The notes under the pieces were generated by a model. That model was given only the letters and a program-made list of their open reading frames with translations, was not told the DNA's origin and did no database searches. Shown piece by piece: positions 105-9,358 of a stretch of DNA of 28,040 nt. Numbering within the stretch: the first letter of the stretch is position 1; each line of letters begins with the position of its first letter. A program made the translations under genes and the position numbers. Source of the DNA: a virus (Duplodnaviria; Caudoviricetes); the IMG/VR virus record IMGVR_UViG_3300011335_000482, positions 1-28,040 of that record. One strand, given 5' to 3'.

Positions 105-1525
105 CACGCCCATCCTTTAAATTTGATTTGCTTGACCGCTGCCAGCTTAGGCTTGGGTCGGTACATTGCCATCATGAGCGCGTCGGCCATGTTGGGTGAT
201 GGTATCTCATACGGCTTCTTCGCCATCTCGATCTTGGACATTATTTGTATTTTACCAGTATTTGTGCGCTTTAGGGGAATCCGGCAAACTTCCGAGCGGA
301 GCTGGTCTATCTTCTCGATCTTGGATGACAAGCTAATCATCTCATCAGGGTTGACGTACTGCCCCTTAGTCACCGCCCGGTATGTCGCCTCAAACCTGTC
401 GCGCAGCCTCCAGTAATACTGTGCCCGCTTATTGGCGAACGTCTCCCGGTTACTCTTGGCCCGCTGAGTGCCGCCATCAGAGTATGGGACATCTGCATCC
501 TCTGGTGACTCTGAGCCTTTGTACATAACGTATTCAATCTTTTTGTTCTCCAGCGCAGCATCTACTTGGCGCTTGAGACTTACGCCCAGGCCATCGCAGT
601 CCCATACAAAGTAATCTGCTCGATCAGCTAATGCAATATCCAGCGCCCAATCCATGCCATCTGCTGATTCGCCTGTGACCTTCTCAGTAACATTGAGCAC
701 GACGTTACCATGACGCACTGCATAGCCCTTGGAGTCGCCGCCAGTGTCAGATGGGTCGTGGCTGGCAATAATAGCGCCCTCGCCCTTCCATCCTAGCTTG
801 ACGTGAGAATCTATTGCAGCCTCAAACCAATCCACCGGAATGATGGTGTCCTCAACCTCATCATAGAACTCACCAAGCCAGATGTGCCGGTAAAGAGCTG
901 TAGACAGGTTGGCTTGGTCGTATGCTCTCTCTTGCTCGAGAACTGCCGGGAAGAACGGGTTGTCGCTGTAGTTGATCCAGATGATAAGGTGCATCTCATC
1001 TTCATAGATGCCTTCGGATCTAAGCTGCTTTTCAAACGGCTTGATGAATCGCTGGCTGAACGGATCTGCAATTGACCGGGGGTTAGCCGTCATCCAGATC
1101 TCGGAGTCATCTGATCGCAGCGTTGGAGTCAGAGCCTTAAGACTGTCCTGGCTGATTGTCTGCGCTTCCTCGACCCAGAACCTCTTGAACCCGTACATGG
1201 ATTTGATTCCTTCCGGATTCCTTGCCAATCCTCGGAACTTGAAAGCATCCTCGCCCTTGTACTGTATTGCGTTAGCCTGAACATTGAAGCCGGACAGCGC
1301 GAGCCTTTCTATTTCACCAGACAGCAGAGAGAGCACCGAATCATCCATTGTGATCTGGTACTCACGAAAGCAGGCTGTTTTGATTCCTTTGGTCTGGGCA
1401 TCCATGAGACAGATGTCGCCAACTGACTGGCTCTCGCCTGACCCCCTTCCCCCGATAAGTATCTTGAATCGCTTGGGAGTGGTTATCAGGCGCTTGAGTT
1501 TAGCCGGTAGTGTCATCTCTGGCAT
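104..1525 (-). CDS. terL: Terminase large subunit (PBSX/Sf6-like), with a variant Walker A
   Basis: 473 aa. Walker A-like IGGRGSGES, Walker B FWVEEAQ, coupling motif MTANP, RNase H-like nuclease motifs HDPSDTGGD and SPNMADALMM. Lies between TerS and portal. Confidence 0.95.
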   Translation of the reverse strand: MPEMTLPAKLKRLITTPKRFKILIGGRGSGESQSVGDICLMDAQTKGIKTACFREYQITMDDSVLSLLSGEIERLALSGFNVQANAIQYKGEDAFKFRGLARNPEGIKSMYGFKRFWVEEAQTISQDSLKALTPTLRSDDSEIWMTANPRSIADPFSQRFIKPFEKQLRSEGIYEDEMHLIIWINYSDNPFFPAVLEQERAYDQANLSTALYRHIWLGEFYDEVEDTIIPVDWFEAAIDSHVKLGWKGEGAIIASHDPSDTGGDSKGYAVRHGNVVLNVTEKVTGESADGMDWALDIALADRADYFVWDCDGLGVSLKRQVDAALENKKIEYVMYKGSESPEDADVPYSDGGTQRAKSNRETFANKRAQYYWRLRDRFEATYRAVTKGQYVNPDEMISLSSKIEKIDQLRSEVCRIPLKRTNTGKIQIMSKIEMAKKPYEIPSPNMADALMMAMYRPKPKLAAVKQIKFKGWA

Positions 1526-1883
1526 CTACAAGCCTCACAGTCCAATCGTTCTTGATGGGGCCACCGTCTGGCCCTGATAGCTCTTGCTCGGTCTTGTCCT
1601 TCCATCCAAAGTTGTTCTTTAGGCTGAAGATTGACCCAACTGGAGACTGTTGATGGAGTCGTTTTTCAAGATACATCTCAACTCTTTGCTTGGCTCTTTT
1701 TACAGTCGCATAGAATTGTTCGTCTGCACTGTAGCGCCGGAGTGATTCTGTATTCATATCAAGGTGATAGGCAAGACCAGAGACGAGAGGAGGATTCTCG
1801 TCATTGCACATTGCAAAATACTCATCAATCTTTGCCTGCATCTCTTCAGCCGACTTGATCTTGAGCGGTCTTCCTGCTGCCAT
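1500..1883 (-). CDS. terS: Terminase small subunit (P22 gp3-like DNA-packaging protein)
   Basis: 127 aa. GRP start, IDEYF, SGLAYHL, IFSLKNNFGWKDKTEQELSGPDGGPI motifs; overlaps the terL start. Confidence 0.9.
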   Translation of the reverse strand: MAAGRPLKIKSAEEMQAKIDEYFAMCNDENPPLVSGLAYHLDMNTESLRRYSADEQFYATVKRAKQRVEMYLEKRLHQQSPVGSIFSLKNNFGWKDKTEQELSGPDGGPIKNDWTVRLVDARDDTTG

Positions 1884-2029
1884 TACTCAATCGTCCCGCG
1901 AGCTTTCTTTGCTCGCTTTGCAGTATCCAGCGCAATTGCGATGGCTTGCTTTTGTGGCTTGCCAGACTTCATCTCAGTCCTGATGTTCTGAGAAACTGTT
2001 TTCTTGCTGTAGCCTTTCTTGATGGGCAT
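1883..2029 (-). CDS. Small basic phage protein (48 aa)
   Basis: Translated by hand: MPIKKGYSKKTVSQNIRTEMKSGKPQKQAIAIALDTAKRAKKARGTIE. RBS AAAGGTG, TAATG coupling to terS. Resembles the MPLKKG..QAVAIAL proteins often found near terminase genes. Confidence 0.8.
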   Translation of the reverse strand: MPIKKGYSKKTVSQNIRTEMKSGKPQKQAIAIALDTAKRAKKARGTIE

Positions 2030-2040
2030 ATGTCACCTTT

Positions 2041-2070
2041 AAAAAATACCCCTGACGATTAATCAGGGGG
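2041..2070 (-). terminator. Intrinsic terminator between lysis and packaging genes
   Basis: Minus strand CCCCTGA-TTAATCG-TCAGGGG followed by TATTTTTT. Confidence 0.7.
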
Positions 2071-2176
2071 TGGAGTAAGGCTCCATAACCGCTCAGAGAT
2101 AAACGCAAAGGGAAGGATGCGCCTGCTATCGGGATTTATAGCGTCTCTTGTGCGGAGGTGGTCATTGTATCGCAAT

Positions 2177-6637: not shown

Positions 6638-6873
6638 AATCCCACACTCTGAGCTAAACTGGCCTTGTCTATCCGCATGCGATAAAACCAAACGTCACCG
6701 CGCCTGTGGCAGTCAATTACAAAGCCCTGTTGCCTAAGCTCCGCCGCAGCCGAATTGACCGCCATCACCTGCGCCCCGCTGACTATCTCCATCGTTGAGT
6801 GATCGCGGCCATCTGAAAGAAACTTGACCACTCGCTGCAATCTTTCAGACCTTGACAGTGCTGCTGCGTGCAT
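6634..6873 (-). CDS. Winged-helix DNA-binding protein
   Basis: RLQRVVKFLSDGRDHSTMEI...VNSAAAELRQQGFVIDC...WFYRM is a wHTH pattern; RBS AAGGGG. Confidence 0.7.
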   Translation of the reverse strand: MHAAALSRSERLQRVVKFLSDGRDHSTMEIVSGAQVMAVNSAAAELRQQGFVIDCHRRGDVWFYRMRIDKASLAQSVGL

Positions 6874-7018
6874 TTTGTCGCCCCTTGTGTATTTTGATGT
6901 GGGTTCTAACCAAGTCTTTCCATTCTTCCGGGCATCCAGCCAAAGCCTCGCGCTCTTTCTCTCTGTCGCCTTCGGCTTTGAGGTAATCCCGGAAGTATTG
7001 CCTGGGCATCTTTTCCAT
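6845..7018 (-). CDS. Hypothetical phage protein (57 aa)
   Basis: Translated by hand: MEKMPRQYFRDYLKAEGDREKEREALAGCPEEWKDLVRTHIKIHKGRQNARSSTVKV. TAATG coupling to the upstream ORF. Confidence 0.65.
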   Translation of the reverse strand: MEKMPRQYFRDYLKAEGDREKEREALAGCPEEWKDLVRTHIKIHKGRQNARSSTVKV

Positions 7019-7806
7019 TATGCGGTCTGCGCGATTCCGAACACTTCAAACATATCATCTTGCACGCCGGATTTATCAGTTGACTGCAGGTGCTTGATTG
7101 CTTCGCGGTAGTATGTTGGATGCAGCTCCGTCCCGATAAACTTCCTACCCATCGTGATTGATGCCATGCCTTCAGAGCCGATACCGCCGAACGGTGAGAA
7201 CACAACGTCCCCTGCATTCGTCCACAATGACAGCGCCCTTTTAGTGATATTCAGAGGCATTGGGCAAAGGTGCTTCTCAGCGTCCTGATCTCGCGCCAGT
7301 CGCACGTTGAGCACGTCCGTGGTAGGCATATCGTAATCGCCCTGCCCGCTCTGCATTCGTGCGTAGTTCCATGCGTGAGGCATTGAGTCAGGCCAGAACT
7401 CGCTCGCCAGCTCTTGCCAACAGATTAGCGGCACTTTGGTTTTCGGATGGAGTACAGGCCGCACTAGGTCTTCCTCGCCCTCCTTCGCCCACTTGCGGAA
7501 GACTAGGACATACTCAGGCATACCGACACGGCAAAAGCTCGCATCGTGCTGCTTTCCTACTGCCAAAGGAGCCAGCAATAAAACCGGCTTATTCTCAAAC
7601 TCGACCACTTGCCGACCGTATTCCAGTTCAACGGCTGTTTTGCCAAGACCTGTATCAAGGAAAGGAGCCCCGCGCCCAGACTCCAGCATGAAGTTGACAA
7701 CGTCCTGCTGGTGCGGAAACAGCTTTGAAGACAGATTCCAATCCTTTCGAATGCCTCTCGGTACAGCCTTTAGCTCTTTTCTTTTTAGAAAATCAAGATA
7801 TTCCAT
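7018..7806 (-). pseudogene. In-frame chimera: SF2 helicase N-terminus fused to the C-terminal half of an N4/N6 DNA methyltransferase
   Basis: Residues ~1-87 carry Q-motif LFPHQ, Walker A DTGLGKT and motif Ia LLLAPLAV. Residues ~88-262 carry EYVLVFRK, KHLCPM and SAM-binding VFSPFGGIGSEG, GRKFIGTEL. No DExx motif and no (D/N/S)PP(Y/F) motif. Confidence 0.7.
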
Positions 7807-7814
7807 ACTTCCCC

Positions 7815-8159
7815 TTAGTGTGCCCAGTCGCGGTTAGTAGCCCGCTCTATGAAGTTATCCGGCCCTGCAATCACAAGTGATTTACCTGCCGCCTCTTTTC
7901 TTCTTCCCAATGATGCCTTGATATACTCAAAGACCACGCCTTTCCATCCAGAATCGATAGTCAGACTGATTGCCTCGTCGGATGGAATGCCTAGCTCTAT
8001 GTTGCATTTGAGGCAGACTTTCATTGCTCTGTCAAAGGCTCGTTGCGTTAGCGGGTCTTTCTTCATCAATCGCCATTCAACAAGCTCTTGAGCTGCTTCA
8101 TCACTCACCCCGTAGGTGTAAGCCTGACTTATATCTATTGGTGCTACTTTTGCCATCAT
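7815..8159 (-). CDS. Replication-initiator C-terminal-domain-like protein
   Basis: 114 aa. EWRLMKKDPLTQRA...I..TIDSGWKG resembles the C-terminal part of phage replisome organisers; no N-terminal HTH. Confidence 0.5.
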   Translation of the reverse strand: MMAKVAPIDISQAYTYGVSDEAAQELVEWRLMKKDPLTQRAFDRAMKVCLKCNIELGIPSDEAISLTIDSGWKGVVFEYIKASLGRRKEAAGKSLVIAGPDNFIERATNRDWAH

Positions 8160-8470
8160 ACTTTCCTTTAGACATAGTTTCCCCTATTTCCCCCATGAAG
8201 GAATCCAGCCTTCACGTCAGCAACTAAGCTATTGCCAGCAATGCCAGCAAGGTACTTTACATCCCCCTGCGATTACTCGCCCACAGAATCCATTCTGTGA
8301 ATCGGACTGCCAATGGCAGACATCATGGGCCAAGTTGACAAGGGTAGGTCAGAGCTTGGAATTTTGATTACCGTTTTTAAGGTTTCGGAACCATGAGCCT
8401 GATTGACGAGTCGGCATTTGCCCCACGGCGAAAGTGGGATTAAGGCTATATAACTAAAAGTTATAGATTC
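8160..8470 (-). ncRNA. Candidate structured non-coding element (RNA or origin)
   Basis: No credible ORF; at least seven short hairpins; G-tracts GGGGGAAATAGGGG near the 3' end. Confidence 0.4.
8449..8465. promoter_or_regulatory. Operator-like inverted repeat
   Basis: Perfect TATAACT-AAA-AGTTATA; a third TATAACT half-site at 8493-8499. Confidence 0.45.
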
Positions 8471-8479
8471 TGACTAGTG

Positions 8480-8508
8480 TTGACCGAAAATGTATAACTC
8501 GGTACAAT
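8480..8508 (+). promoter_or_regulatory. Sigma70 promoter for an antisense small RNA
   Basis: TTGACC-17 bp-TACAAT; the inverted repeat ACCGA-N11-TCGGT spans the spacer. Confidence 0.7.
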
Positions 8509-8514
8509 TCGCTT

Positions 8515-8580
8515 ATCAGGTGCCTGAATCACCTGTCTCACCCCTAAAAAGGCTCAGTTTTCGCAGACTGGGCCTTTTTT
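8515..8580 (+). ncRNA. Candidate ~66-nt antisense small RNA (OOP/RNA I-like position)
   Basis: Bounded by the promoter above and an intrinsic terminator; 5' hairpin CAGGTG-CCTGAAT-CACCTG; no ORF. Confidence 0.6.
8546..8580 (+). terminator. Intrinsic terminator, possibly bidirectional
   Basis: AAAAA-GGCTCAGTT-TTCGCA-GACTGGGCC-TTTTTT. Two G-U pairs favour the plus-strand fold. Confidence 0.75.
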
Positions 8581-8625
8581 CTTTTCGGAGTAGACGTTTC
8601 CTATCTTATCCCACCTTCCCGGCTG

Positions 8626-8823
8626 TTACAAGGGAAACGCTGTAACCCTCATTGCTCGTTTTTGGTGTTTGGTGCCTGTAGTTATCAGGCCGTCTCGCTT
8701 CAGTTGCCCTATGCGCTCGTAGGCTGACTGATGCGTTATCCCGCAATGCTCGGCAATCTCGCGGATTGAACAGCCGGGATTTGCCGCGATGAATGCAAAG
8801 GCTTGTTGCTGTTTTTCGGTCAA
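8626..8823 (-). CDS. LexA-DNA-binding-domain-like winged-helix regulator (no peptidase domain)
   Basis: LTEKQQQAFAFI...PGCSIREIAEHCGI...AYERIGQLKRDGLI......RAMRV. Probable TTG start at 8823 after RBS AAGGGGG; alternative ATG at 8850. Confidence 0.7.
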   Translation of the reverse strand: MTEKQQQAFAFIAANPGCSIREIAEHCGITHQSAYERIGQLKRDGLITTGTKHQKRAMRVTAFPL

Positions 8824-8945
8824 TCTATCCCCCTTGTTTGTGCTTGGCATCTTCGACCGCTGACGCGCAATCCTCTCGGAGTTATGCCATTCCCCGGCTA
8901 TCGGAACCTGTAAGGCTTGCTTACAAGCTGCGTTTAAGCCAGCAC

Positions 8946-8974
8946 ATATTGGCAAACTCGGAAGCATAGAGCAA
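8946..8974 (-). promoter_or_regulatory. Leftward promoter candidate
   Basis: TTGCTC-17 bp-CAATAT with an extended -10 TG and an AT-rich upstream tract at ~8981-9006. Confidence 0.45.
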
Positions 8975-9008
8975 TCCCCAAACAATAATTTTTATTACTA
9001 ATTTTCAG

Positions 9009-9037
9009 TTGACAGCCGTTAACGGCAATTATAGTAT
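9009..9037 (+). promoter_or_regulatory. Strong rightward sigma70 promoter with an operator palindrome
   Basis: TTGACA-17 bp-TAGTAT; perfect 12-bp palindrome GCCGTTAACGGC at 9015-9026 in the spacer. Confidence 0.8.
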
Positions 9038-9066
9038 GGGTCGTCGATTTACGAAAGGTGCAATAA

Positions 9067-9270
9067 ATGACCCCACAAGAAGCAATCGCCGCAATGATAG
9101 ATAGCGGTATGTCGCAGGCCGAGATTGCGCGTCAATGCAATGTCAAAGCCGCGACCATATCGCAACTAGCCAGCGGTAAAAACAAGAATCCAATATACAC
9201 GCTCGGCACTGAGCTGGTCAGGCTCGGCAAACTGGCAAAGAGAAGGGGAAAAAAGAATGAAAAGAACTAA
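9067..9270 (+). CDS. Cro/XRE-type HTH regulator
   Basis: GMSQAEIARQCNVKAATISQLASGKNKNP; RBS AAAGGTG. Confidence 0.85.
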   Translation: MTPQEAIAAMIDSGMSQAEIARQCNVKAATISQLASGKNKNPIYTLGTELVRLGKLAKRRGKKNEKN

Positions 9271-9358
9271 CGCTGTAAATGAAGCCTTCGCATGTGTAAT
9301 CGTCTGCGCCTTGGCTTTCGGATTAACGTTTATCACTGCGGCAGGATGGATGTTATGA
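9257..9358 (+). CDS. Small single-TM protein (33 aa)
   Basis: Translated by hand: MKRTNAVNEAFACVIVCALAFGLTFITAAGWML. RBS AAGGGG; ATGA overlap with the next gene. Confidence 0.55.
   Translation: MKRTNAVNEAFACVIVCALAFGLTFITAAGWML

Follow-up and report, generated by a model that had tools for sequence, protein, structure and literature searches.

Genome context and features of the locus

The window analysed in this study (the whole 28,040-nucleotide stretch of IMG/VR virus record IMGVR_UViG_3300011335_000482) belongs to a P22-like podovirus, in which profile searches matched the coat protein (PF11651), terminase, ERF, NinG and NinB. The locus described here occupies the slot of cII, O and P in lambdoid phages, with divergent regulators (near 9000) on one side and the nin genes on the other. 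Because the record is only 81% complete, complete relatives were used to test whether replication genes are lacking. The features of the locus, read along the minus strand, are as follows.

8626–8985, minus strand: winged-helix (MarR/HTH_24-like) regulator gene (Pfam MarR_2, E 1.9e-8; HTH_24, E 3e-8)
8603–8631, minus strand: predicted promoter for the long RNA in the sense direction, TTGTAA-17-TAAGAT (matches 8 of 12 consensus positions, below the scan threshold)
8167–8596, minus strand: predicted long non-coding RNA of about 430 nt, its ends placed from the promoter and the 3' box
8515–8585, plus strand: predicted antisense RNA of ~70 nt, with hairpin 8517–8535 carrying a 7-nt loop, a C-rich linker and terminator 8546–8579
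8480–8508, plus strand: antisense promoter, TTGACC-17-TACAAT (promoter scan)
8449–8465, no strand assigned: dyad with 6-bp arms, candidate operator or 5' hairpin (by eye)
8395–8439, minus strand: 5' module of the RNA (blastn, 89–98% to relatives L001 and L003)
8371–8392, minus strand: candidate small H-type pseudoknot (8392–8390/8383–8381 and 8388–8386/8373–8371)
8330–8359, minus strand: hairpin P1 of the core, whose 8-nt loop is C-rich; no other part is as widespread (outer-stem covariation)
8192–8329, minus strand: multibranch domain closed by 8329–8323/8198–8192 (covariation alignment)
8319–8307, 8299–8282, 8280–8269 and 8249–8233, minus strand: hairpins inside the multibranch domain (covariation alignment)
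8167–8194, minus strand: 3' G-tract together with the conserved 3' box, where the RNA may end or priming may start (box in 18 elements)
7815–8159, minus strand: C-terminal domain of O-type replication initiators standing alone, an all-helical protein of 114 aa (phrog_678 match, homologue lengths, AlphaFold model)
7018–7806, minus strand: gene 3' of the initiator, in which the first 86 aa of a helicase-type gene are joined in frame to the last ~175 aa of a DNA methylase

The stop codon of the regulator gene overlaps the -35 box of the sense promoter. Both partners of the fusion gene at the other end of the locus occur in relative L214 as separate full genes, of 464 aa (helicase-type) and 317 aa (methylase); the fusion arose either by a large internal deletion or by an assembly join, and it does not provide a working replicative helicase. 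A small phrog_3648 gene (6845–7018, minus strand), also found 3' of the headless initiator in complete relatives G006 and G007, encodes a candidate partner protein.

Relatives of the module were sought in several collections. INPHARED yielded none with tblastn using the window protein or blastn using two elements, while more distant query proteins gave only weak matches there, mostly to genes annotated as O-like or primosomal; no match was found among GTDB genome contigs. No description of the module was found in a literature search that covered part of the supplement of Fremin et al. 2023 (PMC10690425); that part contains none of four motifs or two contig identifiers, and the folded RNA may be among the candidates of that study.

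A stand-alone C-terminal initiator domain

A preliminary description of this DNA, made from the letters alone, had proposed that the 114-aa gene is the C-terminal domain of an initiator by itself, and profile searches bear this out: the protein matches positions 222–285 of the 346 positions of phrog_678 ('replication initiation O-like', E 1.8e-5), and only 8 open codons stand in front of the reading frame. A length-limited homologue search returned 16 relatives of 110–159 aa, a result that proves nothing by itself. The search without a length limit returned 104 representatives, which by hand count comprise 40 proteins of 99–137 aa, 52 of 217–376 aa and 12 others. The domain forms the C-terminal end of all 52 long representatives, and 20 of the 27 long ones scanned carry an N-terminal Phage_rep_O, HTH_36, DUF1376 or Lin1244_N domain. 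On this evidence, headless proteins form a widespread class. Homologues were also checked for an intact long initiator frame across 8160–8600, and short stand-alone proteins were found instead.

The AlphaFold model of the 114-aa protein is confident (pLDDT 88.5). Its best relevant structure match, the DnaD domain 2i5u (Z 5.0, rmsd 2.2, 58 residues aligned, rank 3), lies at or below noise level, and neither Foldseek nor a PDB sequence search gave a meaningful match. Its Atlas neighbours are other initiator C-terminal domains (Phg_2220_C, 0.90; DnaT, 0.87; DnaB_2, 0.85). The modelling points, weakly, to a ssDNA-binding type of domain as the likely nature of this protein. As the preliminary description had stated, no iteron array is present: no exact 12-mer occurs twice in 7815–8600, and a repeat search of the stretch showed no such array. 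Among full-length initiator loci, 17 of 20 contain a repeated exact 12-mer in 2–3 copies.

A conserved non-coding fold on the minus strand

The hairpins quoted in the preliminary description are all present on the minus strand (8439–8434/8426–8421, 8392–8381, 8319–8307, 8300–8292/8289–8281, 8280–8269 and 8215–8209/8201–8195, followed by the G-tract at 8194–8181). Two of the quoted stems, 8439–8421 and 8215–8195, are not the conserved ones, and strand 8198–8192 pairs over a long range with 8329–8323 rather than within stem 8215–8195. That list also omitted the most conserved hairpin (8359–8330) and the sense promoter (8631–8603).

When homologues were aligned, the hairpins proved to be conserved, with compensatory changes. 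Across eight sequences the fold comprises 42 pairs, with 98.2% of 332 cells paired and compensatory changes in 11 pairs, a structure that was derived from these same eight sequences, several of which are close kin, so that L023 and L171 carry much of the covariation signal. None of 500 shuffles scored as high, and slid controls were 34–49% paired. Single-sequence folding was hardly better than shuffles (z -1.4 on the minus strand and -2.0 on the plus strand), and the case for the fold therefore rests on the relatives. Values of -50.0 (covariation -2.0) for the minus strand versus -40.2 (covariation -0.4) for the plus strand agree with the earlier reading of a minus-strand RNA, and the G-U-rich helices hold on the minus strand and fail on the plus strand.

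Individual parts of the element differ in how strongly they are constrained. The outer stem of P1 is 100% paired in 14 sequences, with compensatory changes in 3 pairs, and it covaries in distant phages too, where the stem was absent from the search pattern. The candidate pseudoknot (6 pairs) is 100% paired with one compensatory change per stem in 6 distinct rows, and 16 of 500 shuffles score as high. Within the multibranch domain, hairpin 8280–8269 carries a GUAA tetraloop in the window and GCAA or CUUG in its kin, a G5 run at 8267–8263 is invariant, a tandem U-G/G-U is kept in helix 8249–8233, and G-U pairs are kept in several helices. Bases 8185–8181 of the G-tract can pair with the P1 loop (8344–8340), a pairing that is 97% satisfied in 14 sequences and whose sole change is one-sided (U-G/C-G); on these alignments, the 3' G-tract is explained at least equally well as the paired strands of two helices. 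The variant of the 5' module found in the window is common to L001 and L003, and a related variant starts most other elements. At the position equivalent to the dyad at 8449–8465, L004, L006 and L022 have a different dyad (by eye).

The stretch 8167–8391 is 80–85% identical to the upstream region of many relatives, including those with intervening genes. An Rfam search of the window gave no match, including to Betaproteobacteria-1 (RF02932) and Polynucleobacter-1 (RF01718); 14 loci searched at the gathering threshold gave one tRNA only, and 12 loci searched at E up to 1 gave only two weak, unrelated matches. At the level of sequence, these comparisons establish the element as a conserved, uncatalogued, non-coding fold read from the minus strand.

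Facing promoters and a predicted antisense RNA

A sigma-70-like site on the sense strand lies at a like distance, 140–200 nt ahead of the 5' module, in 18 of 19 loci (shuffles gave an expectation of 4.4), and an equivalent of the antisense promoter occurs in 15 of 19 (3.6 expected); these counts were made with a loose threshold in windows picked after the sequences had been viewed, and the 19 loci fall into about 11 groups. The terminator-like site at 8546–8579 was the one such site found in 7700–9300, and the layout of the antisense unit is kept in relatives. The preliminary description had placed a small, oppositely oriented unit immediately upstream of the hairpin-rich 310 nt. The unit is real as a sequence feature, with its promoter-like and terminator-like sites, and it overlaps the predicted 5' end of the long RNA rather than the hairpin-rich stretch: over its full length, the antisense RNA is complementary to a segment of the predicted long RNA (~8596–8167) about 10–80 nt from the start of the latter. 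The two promoter-like sites and the overlap of the two predicted RNAs are supported by comparison of the sequences.

The loop of the antisense hairpin varies among relatives. In a subgroup of 17 segments, whose stems were fixed by the search pattern, the loop is 42% identical compared to 83% and 79% in its flanks, and 11 different loops occur. In the subgroup of the window (6 segments), the loop is 68% identical compared to 48% and 42% in the flanks, and is therefore not hypervariable.

Interchangeable cores and distribution among relatives

Relatives keep the promoters, the 5' module and the 3' box, and their cores differ. The type B core covaries independently, and a type C core and an A-like variant (L020) also occur; three or more unrelated folds (types A, B and C) exchange with one another in this slot. 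In L001, the 5' module of the window is combined with a core of type C and an endonuclease-like gene, and a remnant of the 3' end of the window is also present; L012 and L034 have flanks in common and different cores. Genes that are GIY-YIG/T5orf172-like (by motif and weak PHROG matches) or HNH-like lie directly behind the core in L001 (2776–3360), L012 (3085–3810), L020, L040 and L162 (2639–2908), and are followed by remnants of the 3' end of another core, a pattern that suggests endonuclease-driven swapping of RNA alleles.

The association between element and initiator type was counted at 77 loci, which were reduced to 50 after dropping duplicates, contig edges and loci with less than 600 nt upstream (L020 and L207 are one contig). 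In profile searches, the element was found upstream of 24 of 29 headless initiators versus none of 21 full-length initiators, where the profiles had been trained on many of the positives, the loci are not independent and the full-length loci represent more distant phages. Distant held-out positives are L012, L214 and L218, with L230 a further positive by alignment; no element was found in L039, L206, L216 or L225 within the available upstream DNA. The element type also precedes other short initiator-like proteins, namely in L118 a 118-aa protein that matches no PHROG and has a P-like loader (E 4e-10) behind it, and a 145-aa protein in L162 (phrog_270, positions 176–256 of 383). In relatives, unrelated first genes are inserted behind the element, whose own position is fixed, and the initiator can follow 0.2–3 kb downstream. 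A scan with the 5'-module pattern returned 110 stretches, mostly chance matches, of which 22 passed a filter, several of them still unrelated; a scan with the type B pattern returned only loci already known plus unrelated matches.

Several further arrangements were observed among these loci. In L174 (2330–3200) and L118 (2260–2420), gene-free sequence with tRNA-like arms precedes the core (by eye), and the stretch in L174 is about 900 nt long with its own promoter-like site. L159 contains, between the element and a helicase gene, a 293-aa ORF of His/Gly-rich tetrapeptide repeats (1250–2131, minus strand), repeats that could matter as DNA. Around position 2501 of L097, the 5' module and a 3'-box-like sequence flank an unclassified core; this record (40% complete) has no initiator of the family of the 114-aa protein.

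Replication genes in complete relatives

Three relatives with a CheckV completeness of 100% (G006, G007 and G008) gave no match to DnaB_C, HTH_36, Phage_rep_O, IstB/DnaC, lambda P or a tyrosine integrase. The headless O-like gene was the only initiation-type match in the 106 of 170 listed ORFs scanned in these genomes, the ORFs outside the scan lying mostly in the structural module. A plasmid-like or purely lytic life style is possible for these lambdoid-type phages, as far as tyrosine integrases are concerned. More broadly, HTH_36 and Phage_rep_O were absent from five records that are at least 90% complete. The preliminary description had seen no DnaC/P loader, and the wider searches agree, with no lambda P match in the window or four relatives and no IstB/DnaC match in five relatives.

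The RNA core is also present in four genomes (G001, G002, G003 and G004) that have no match to the family of the 114-aa protein. G001 has the core, yet no recognisable replication gene or initiator in the 39 of 47 ORFs scanned, and in G003 the core precedes genes for a helicase and for a short zinc finger of the primase type (15 of 36 ORFs scanned). In G002 (41 kb, complete), the core lies at 34.8 kb, at the end of a long gene-free stretch, and the same genome has a 271-aa primosomal-type initiator and a primase/helicase at 0.5–2.3 kb (34 of 68 ORFs scanned); G002 is a counterexample to replacement of a full-length initiator by the RNA core. L160, L161, L168, L169 and L173 (G001) carry the P1 core and a G-rich 3' end in a long structured stretch; in view of the ORFs scanned in G001, these phages are candidates for a protein-free origin.

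The skew minimum falls at the element in the window (8295) and at the divergent promoters in G006, G007 and G008. GC skew is confounded by gene direction, and a sign change at four-fold sites was seen near the element only in G008.

Possible explanations for the locus

The preferred reading, given an even chance of being correct, is that the locus is an antisense-controlled, RNA-primed replication origin with a helicase-loading adaptor. Host RNA polymerase would make the ~430-nt RNA starting at 8596, and the folded RNA would remain paired with its template around the 3' G-tract and box (8194–8167); the resulting R-loop would open the DNA and supply a primer, as ColE1 RNA II does. The headless DnaD/DnaT-like domain would bind the displaced strand and help to load the host helicase, which is the task of the C-terminal half of lambda O, and the RNA would thus stand in for the winged-helix domain and the iterons. 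The ~70-nt antisense RNA would kiss the nascent 5' end via its 7-nt loop and block productive folding, a block that would limit copy number and exclude relatives that share this loop. All of these steps, from transcription and R-loop priming to helicase loading and antisense gating, are inferred. The fixed position of the element ahead of varying first genes is easier to reconcile with a cis-acting site than with control of a single start codon. A broader proposal, held more tentatively and put at somewhat less than an even chance, is that a lambdoid phage family swapped the winged helix and iterons for interchangeable self-priming RNAs, handing the locus to a stand-alone helicase-loading domain, with the antisense loop defining incompatibility groups and allowing integrase-free, plasmid-like copy control.

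There are several other potential explanations. The long RNA could be an antisense-controlled 5' leader of the early operon, with the origin elsewhere, in which case attenuation, antitermination (HK022 put-like) or a pseudoknot over the ribosome-binding site would set the level of the headless initiator and nin-type genes; this is the main rival and is judged less likely than not. The element heads the operon in the sense direction, its P1 loop could form pairs with AGGGG, an SD-like sequence five bases ahead of an ATG at 8174, and in the window five U on the sense strand come directly after hairpin 8546–8579. Control of rep expression, too, typically involves facing promoters and variable loops. 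In addition, the antisense unit sits at the position of lambda oop (PMC5869508). However, the gene behind the element varies, the initiator can be 0.2–3 kb downstream, and type B elements lack the ATG, which in the elements that have it opens short unrelated frames. Moreover, no terminator was found in the core, the sense U-run is absent in L004, L006, L022 and L023, and a leader does not account for the missing DNA-binding half of the initiator and other origin-binding proteins. Far less credible is the suggestion that 8160–8470 is the remnant of a decayed or recoded N-terminal half of an initiator: some relatives do have open frames of 90–150 codons through part of the element, but no frame is open across eight relatives, the indels are mostly single bases, and other genes are inserted between element and initiator. 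Together, the closed frames, the indels and the class of short homologues (40 of 104 representatives) effectively refute a decayed long initiator, which is given almost no weight.

It is improbable that the RNA is a free-standing phage non-coding RNA, or the passenger of a homing-endonuclease cassette, that favours this hot spot and has no direct role in initiation. Such independence would suit the presence of the P1 core in phages without the 114-aa initiator family and beside the full-length initiator of G002, its position after other gene-free, tRNA-like sequence in L174 and L118 (by eye), and the endonuclease-like genes that adjoin the element in L001, L003, L012, L020, L040 and L162. However, most elements, including that of the window, have no adjoining endonuclease, none of the 21 full-length loci has an element, and the unrelated folds A, B and C take one another's place within a constant frame of promoters, 5' module and 3' box, suggesting that a single function is needed there. 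Less probable still, and very unlikely overall, is a fold that forms in ssDNA exposed by transcription and serves as a site of primosome or primase assembly, the RNA being incidental. Covariation alone cannot separate RNA from ssDNA (PMC5737381), and a ssDNA-binding type of domain, weakly indicated as it is, would suit such a signal. However, G-U pairs are kept, including the tandem pair in 8249–8233, the tetraloops switch among the three sequences given above, and the dedicated promoter and predicted antisense RNA point to RNA. Loops of the types GUAA, GCAA and CUUG are stable in RNA.

Lambdoid phages are textbook iteron replicons. If the proposed RNA-primed origin is real, its combination with half of an initiator of the O type would unite two classic initiation strategies in one hybrid. 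It would also account for the many phage genomes in which no initiator, or just a short fragment of one, is seen, and would assign a role to pseudoknotted RNAs that are so far uncatalogued. The module is smaller than 900 bp and has natural RNA swaps and loop variants, and if it were a leader it would still represent a new covarying RNA family with an antisense partner.

Comparison with known replication systems

The lambda O/P module contains the ori-lambda iterons and is accompanied by oop RNA (PMC5043065 and PMC5869508). The present module shares with it the genome slot between divergent regulators and ninB/ninG, a protein homologous to the C-terminal part of O-like initiators, and a small antisense unit just upstream, at the position of oop (PMC5869508). 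In contrast to lambda, the present module has neither the winged-helix N-terminal domain nor iterons, has a sense promoter and a folded RNA instead, and shows no P in the window or three complete relatives.

Antisense-controlled leaders of plasmid rep genes include CopA/CopT of R1, the pseudoknot of IncB/IncI and the attenuation system of pT181. The present module resembles them in its facing promoters, variable kissing loop, structured leader and possible pseudoknot over an SD-like sequence, but differs in that the first gene varies, that no conserved leader peptide or sense terminator is present, and that the phage initiator has no origin-binding domain. The plasmid motifs ARRPOF, GEBRO and PAGEV, of 223–349 nt, offer another comparison, ARRPOF lying in a region that replicates without rep (PMC5737381). 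They are likewise medium-sized structured motifs tied to a replication region, whereas the element described here has a phage context, an antisense partner, a headless initiator and no Rfam match.

In ColE1, replication is controlled by the pre-primer RNA II and the antisense RNA I (PMC5043065). The preliminary description had likened the locus to ColE1, and its layout bears the comparison: both have a long structured RNA with its own promoter and a short antisense RNA against the 5' part of that RNA (both RNAs predicted here), and no iterons. In each, G-runs also appear to precede a CTATG-like box close to the 3' end. The G-tract of ColE1 has a role in the function of the priming RNA. The distances of the G-runs to the box are -259, -93 and -12 in ColE1 (record NC_001371) and -249, -92, -19 and -9 in the window, a likeness that fails a significance test, as does the alignment of 15 of 18 bases between the 3' ends of L003 and ColE1. 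In a profile of 18 phage 3' boxes, the ColE1 box ranks 16th–34th of 1950 with a negative score. L035 gave alignments to ColE1 with low shuffle counts on both strands (0 of 300 and 0 of 200), and the window gave none such. Local alignments and nhmmer searches against NC_001371 were unconvincing, blastn against plasmids returned chance-level matches only, and homology to RNA II, which was not detected, was rejected. The systems differ in other respects as well, as the present module belongs to a P22-like phage, its RNA is about 430 nt compared to 550 in ColE1, several unrelated folds fill the phage slot with no Rfam RNAI match and no detectable sequence homology, and the phage encodes an initiator domain behind the RNA, whereas ColE1 encodes no initiator. 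The module resembles ColE1 in layout and is not a member of the ColE1 type.
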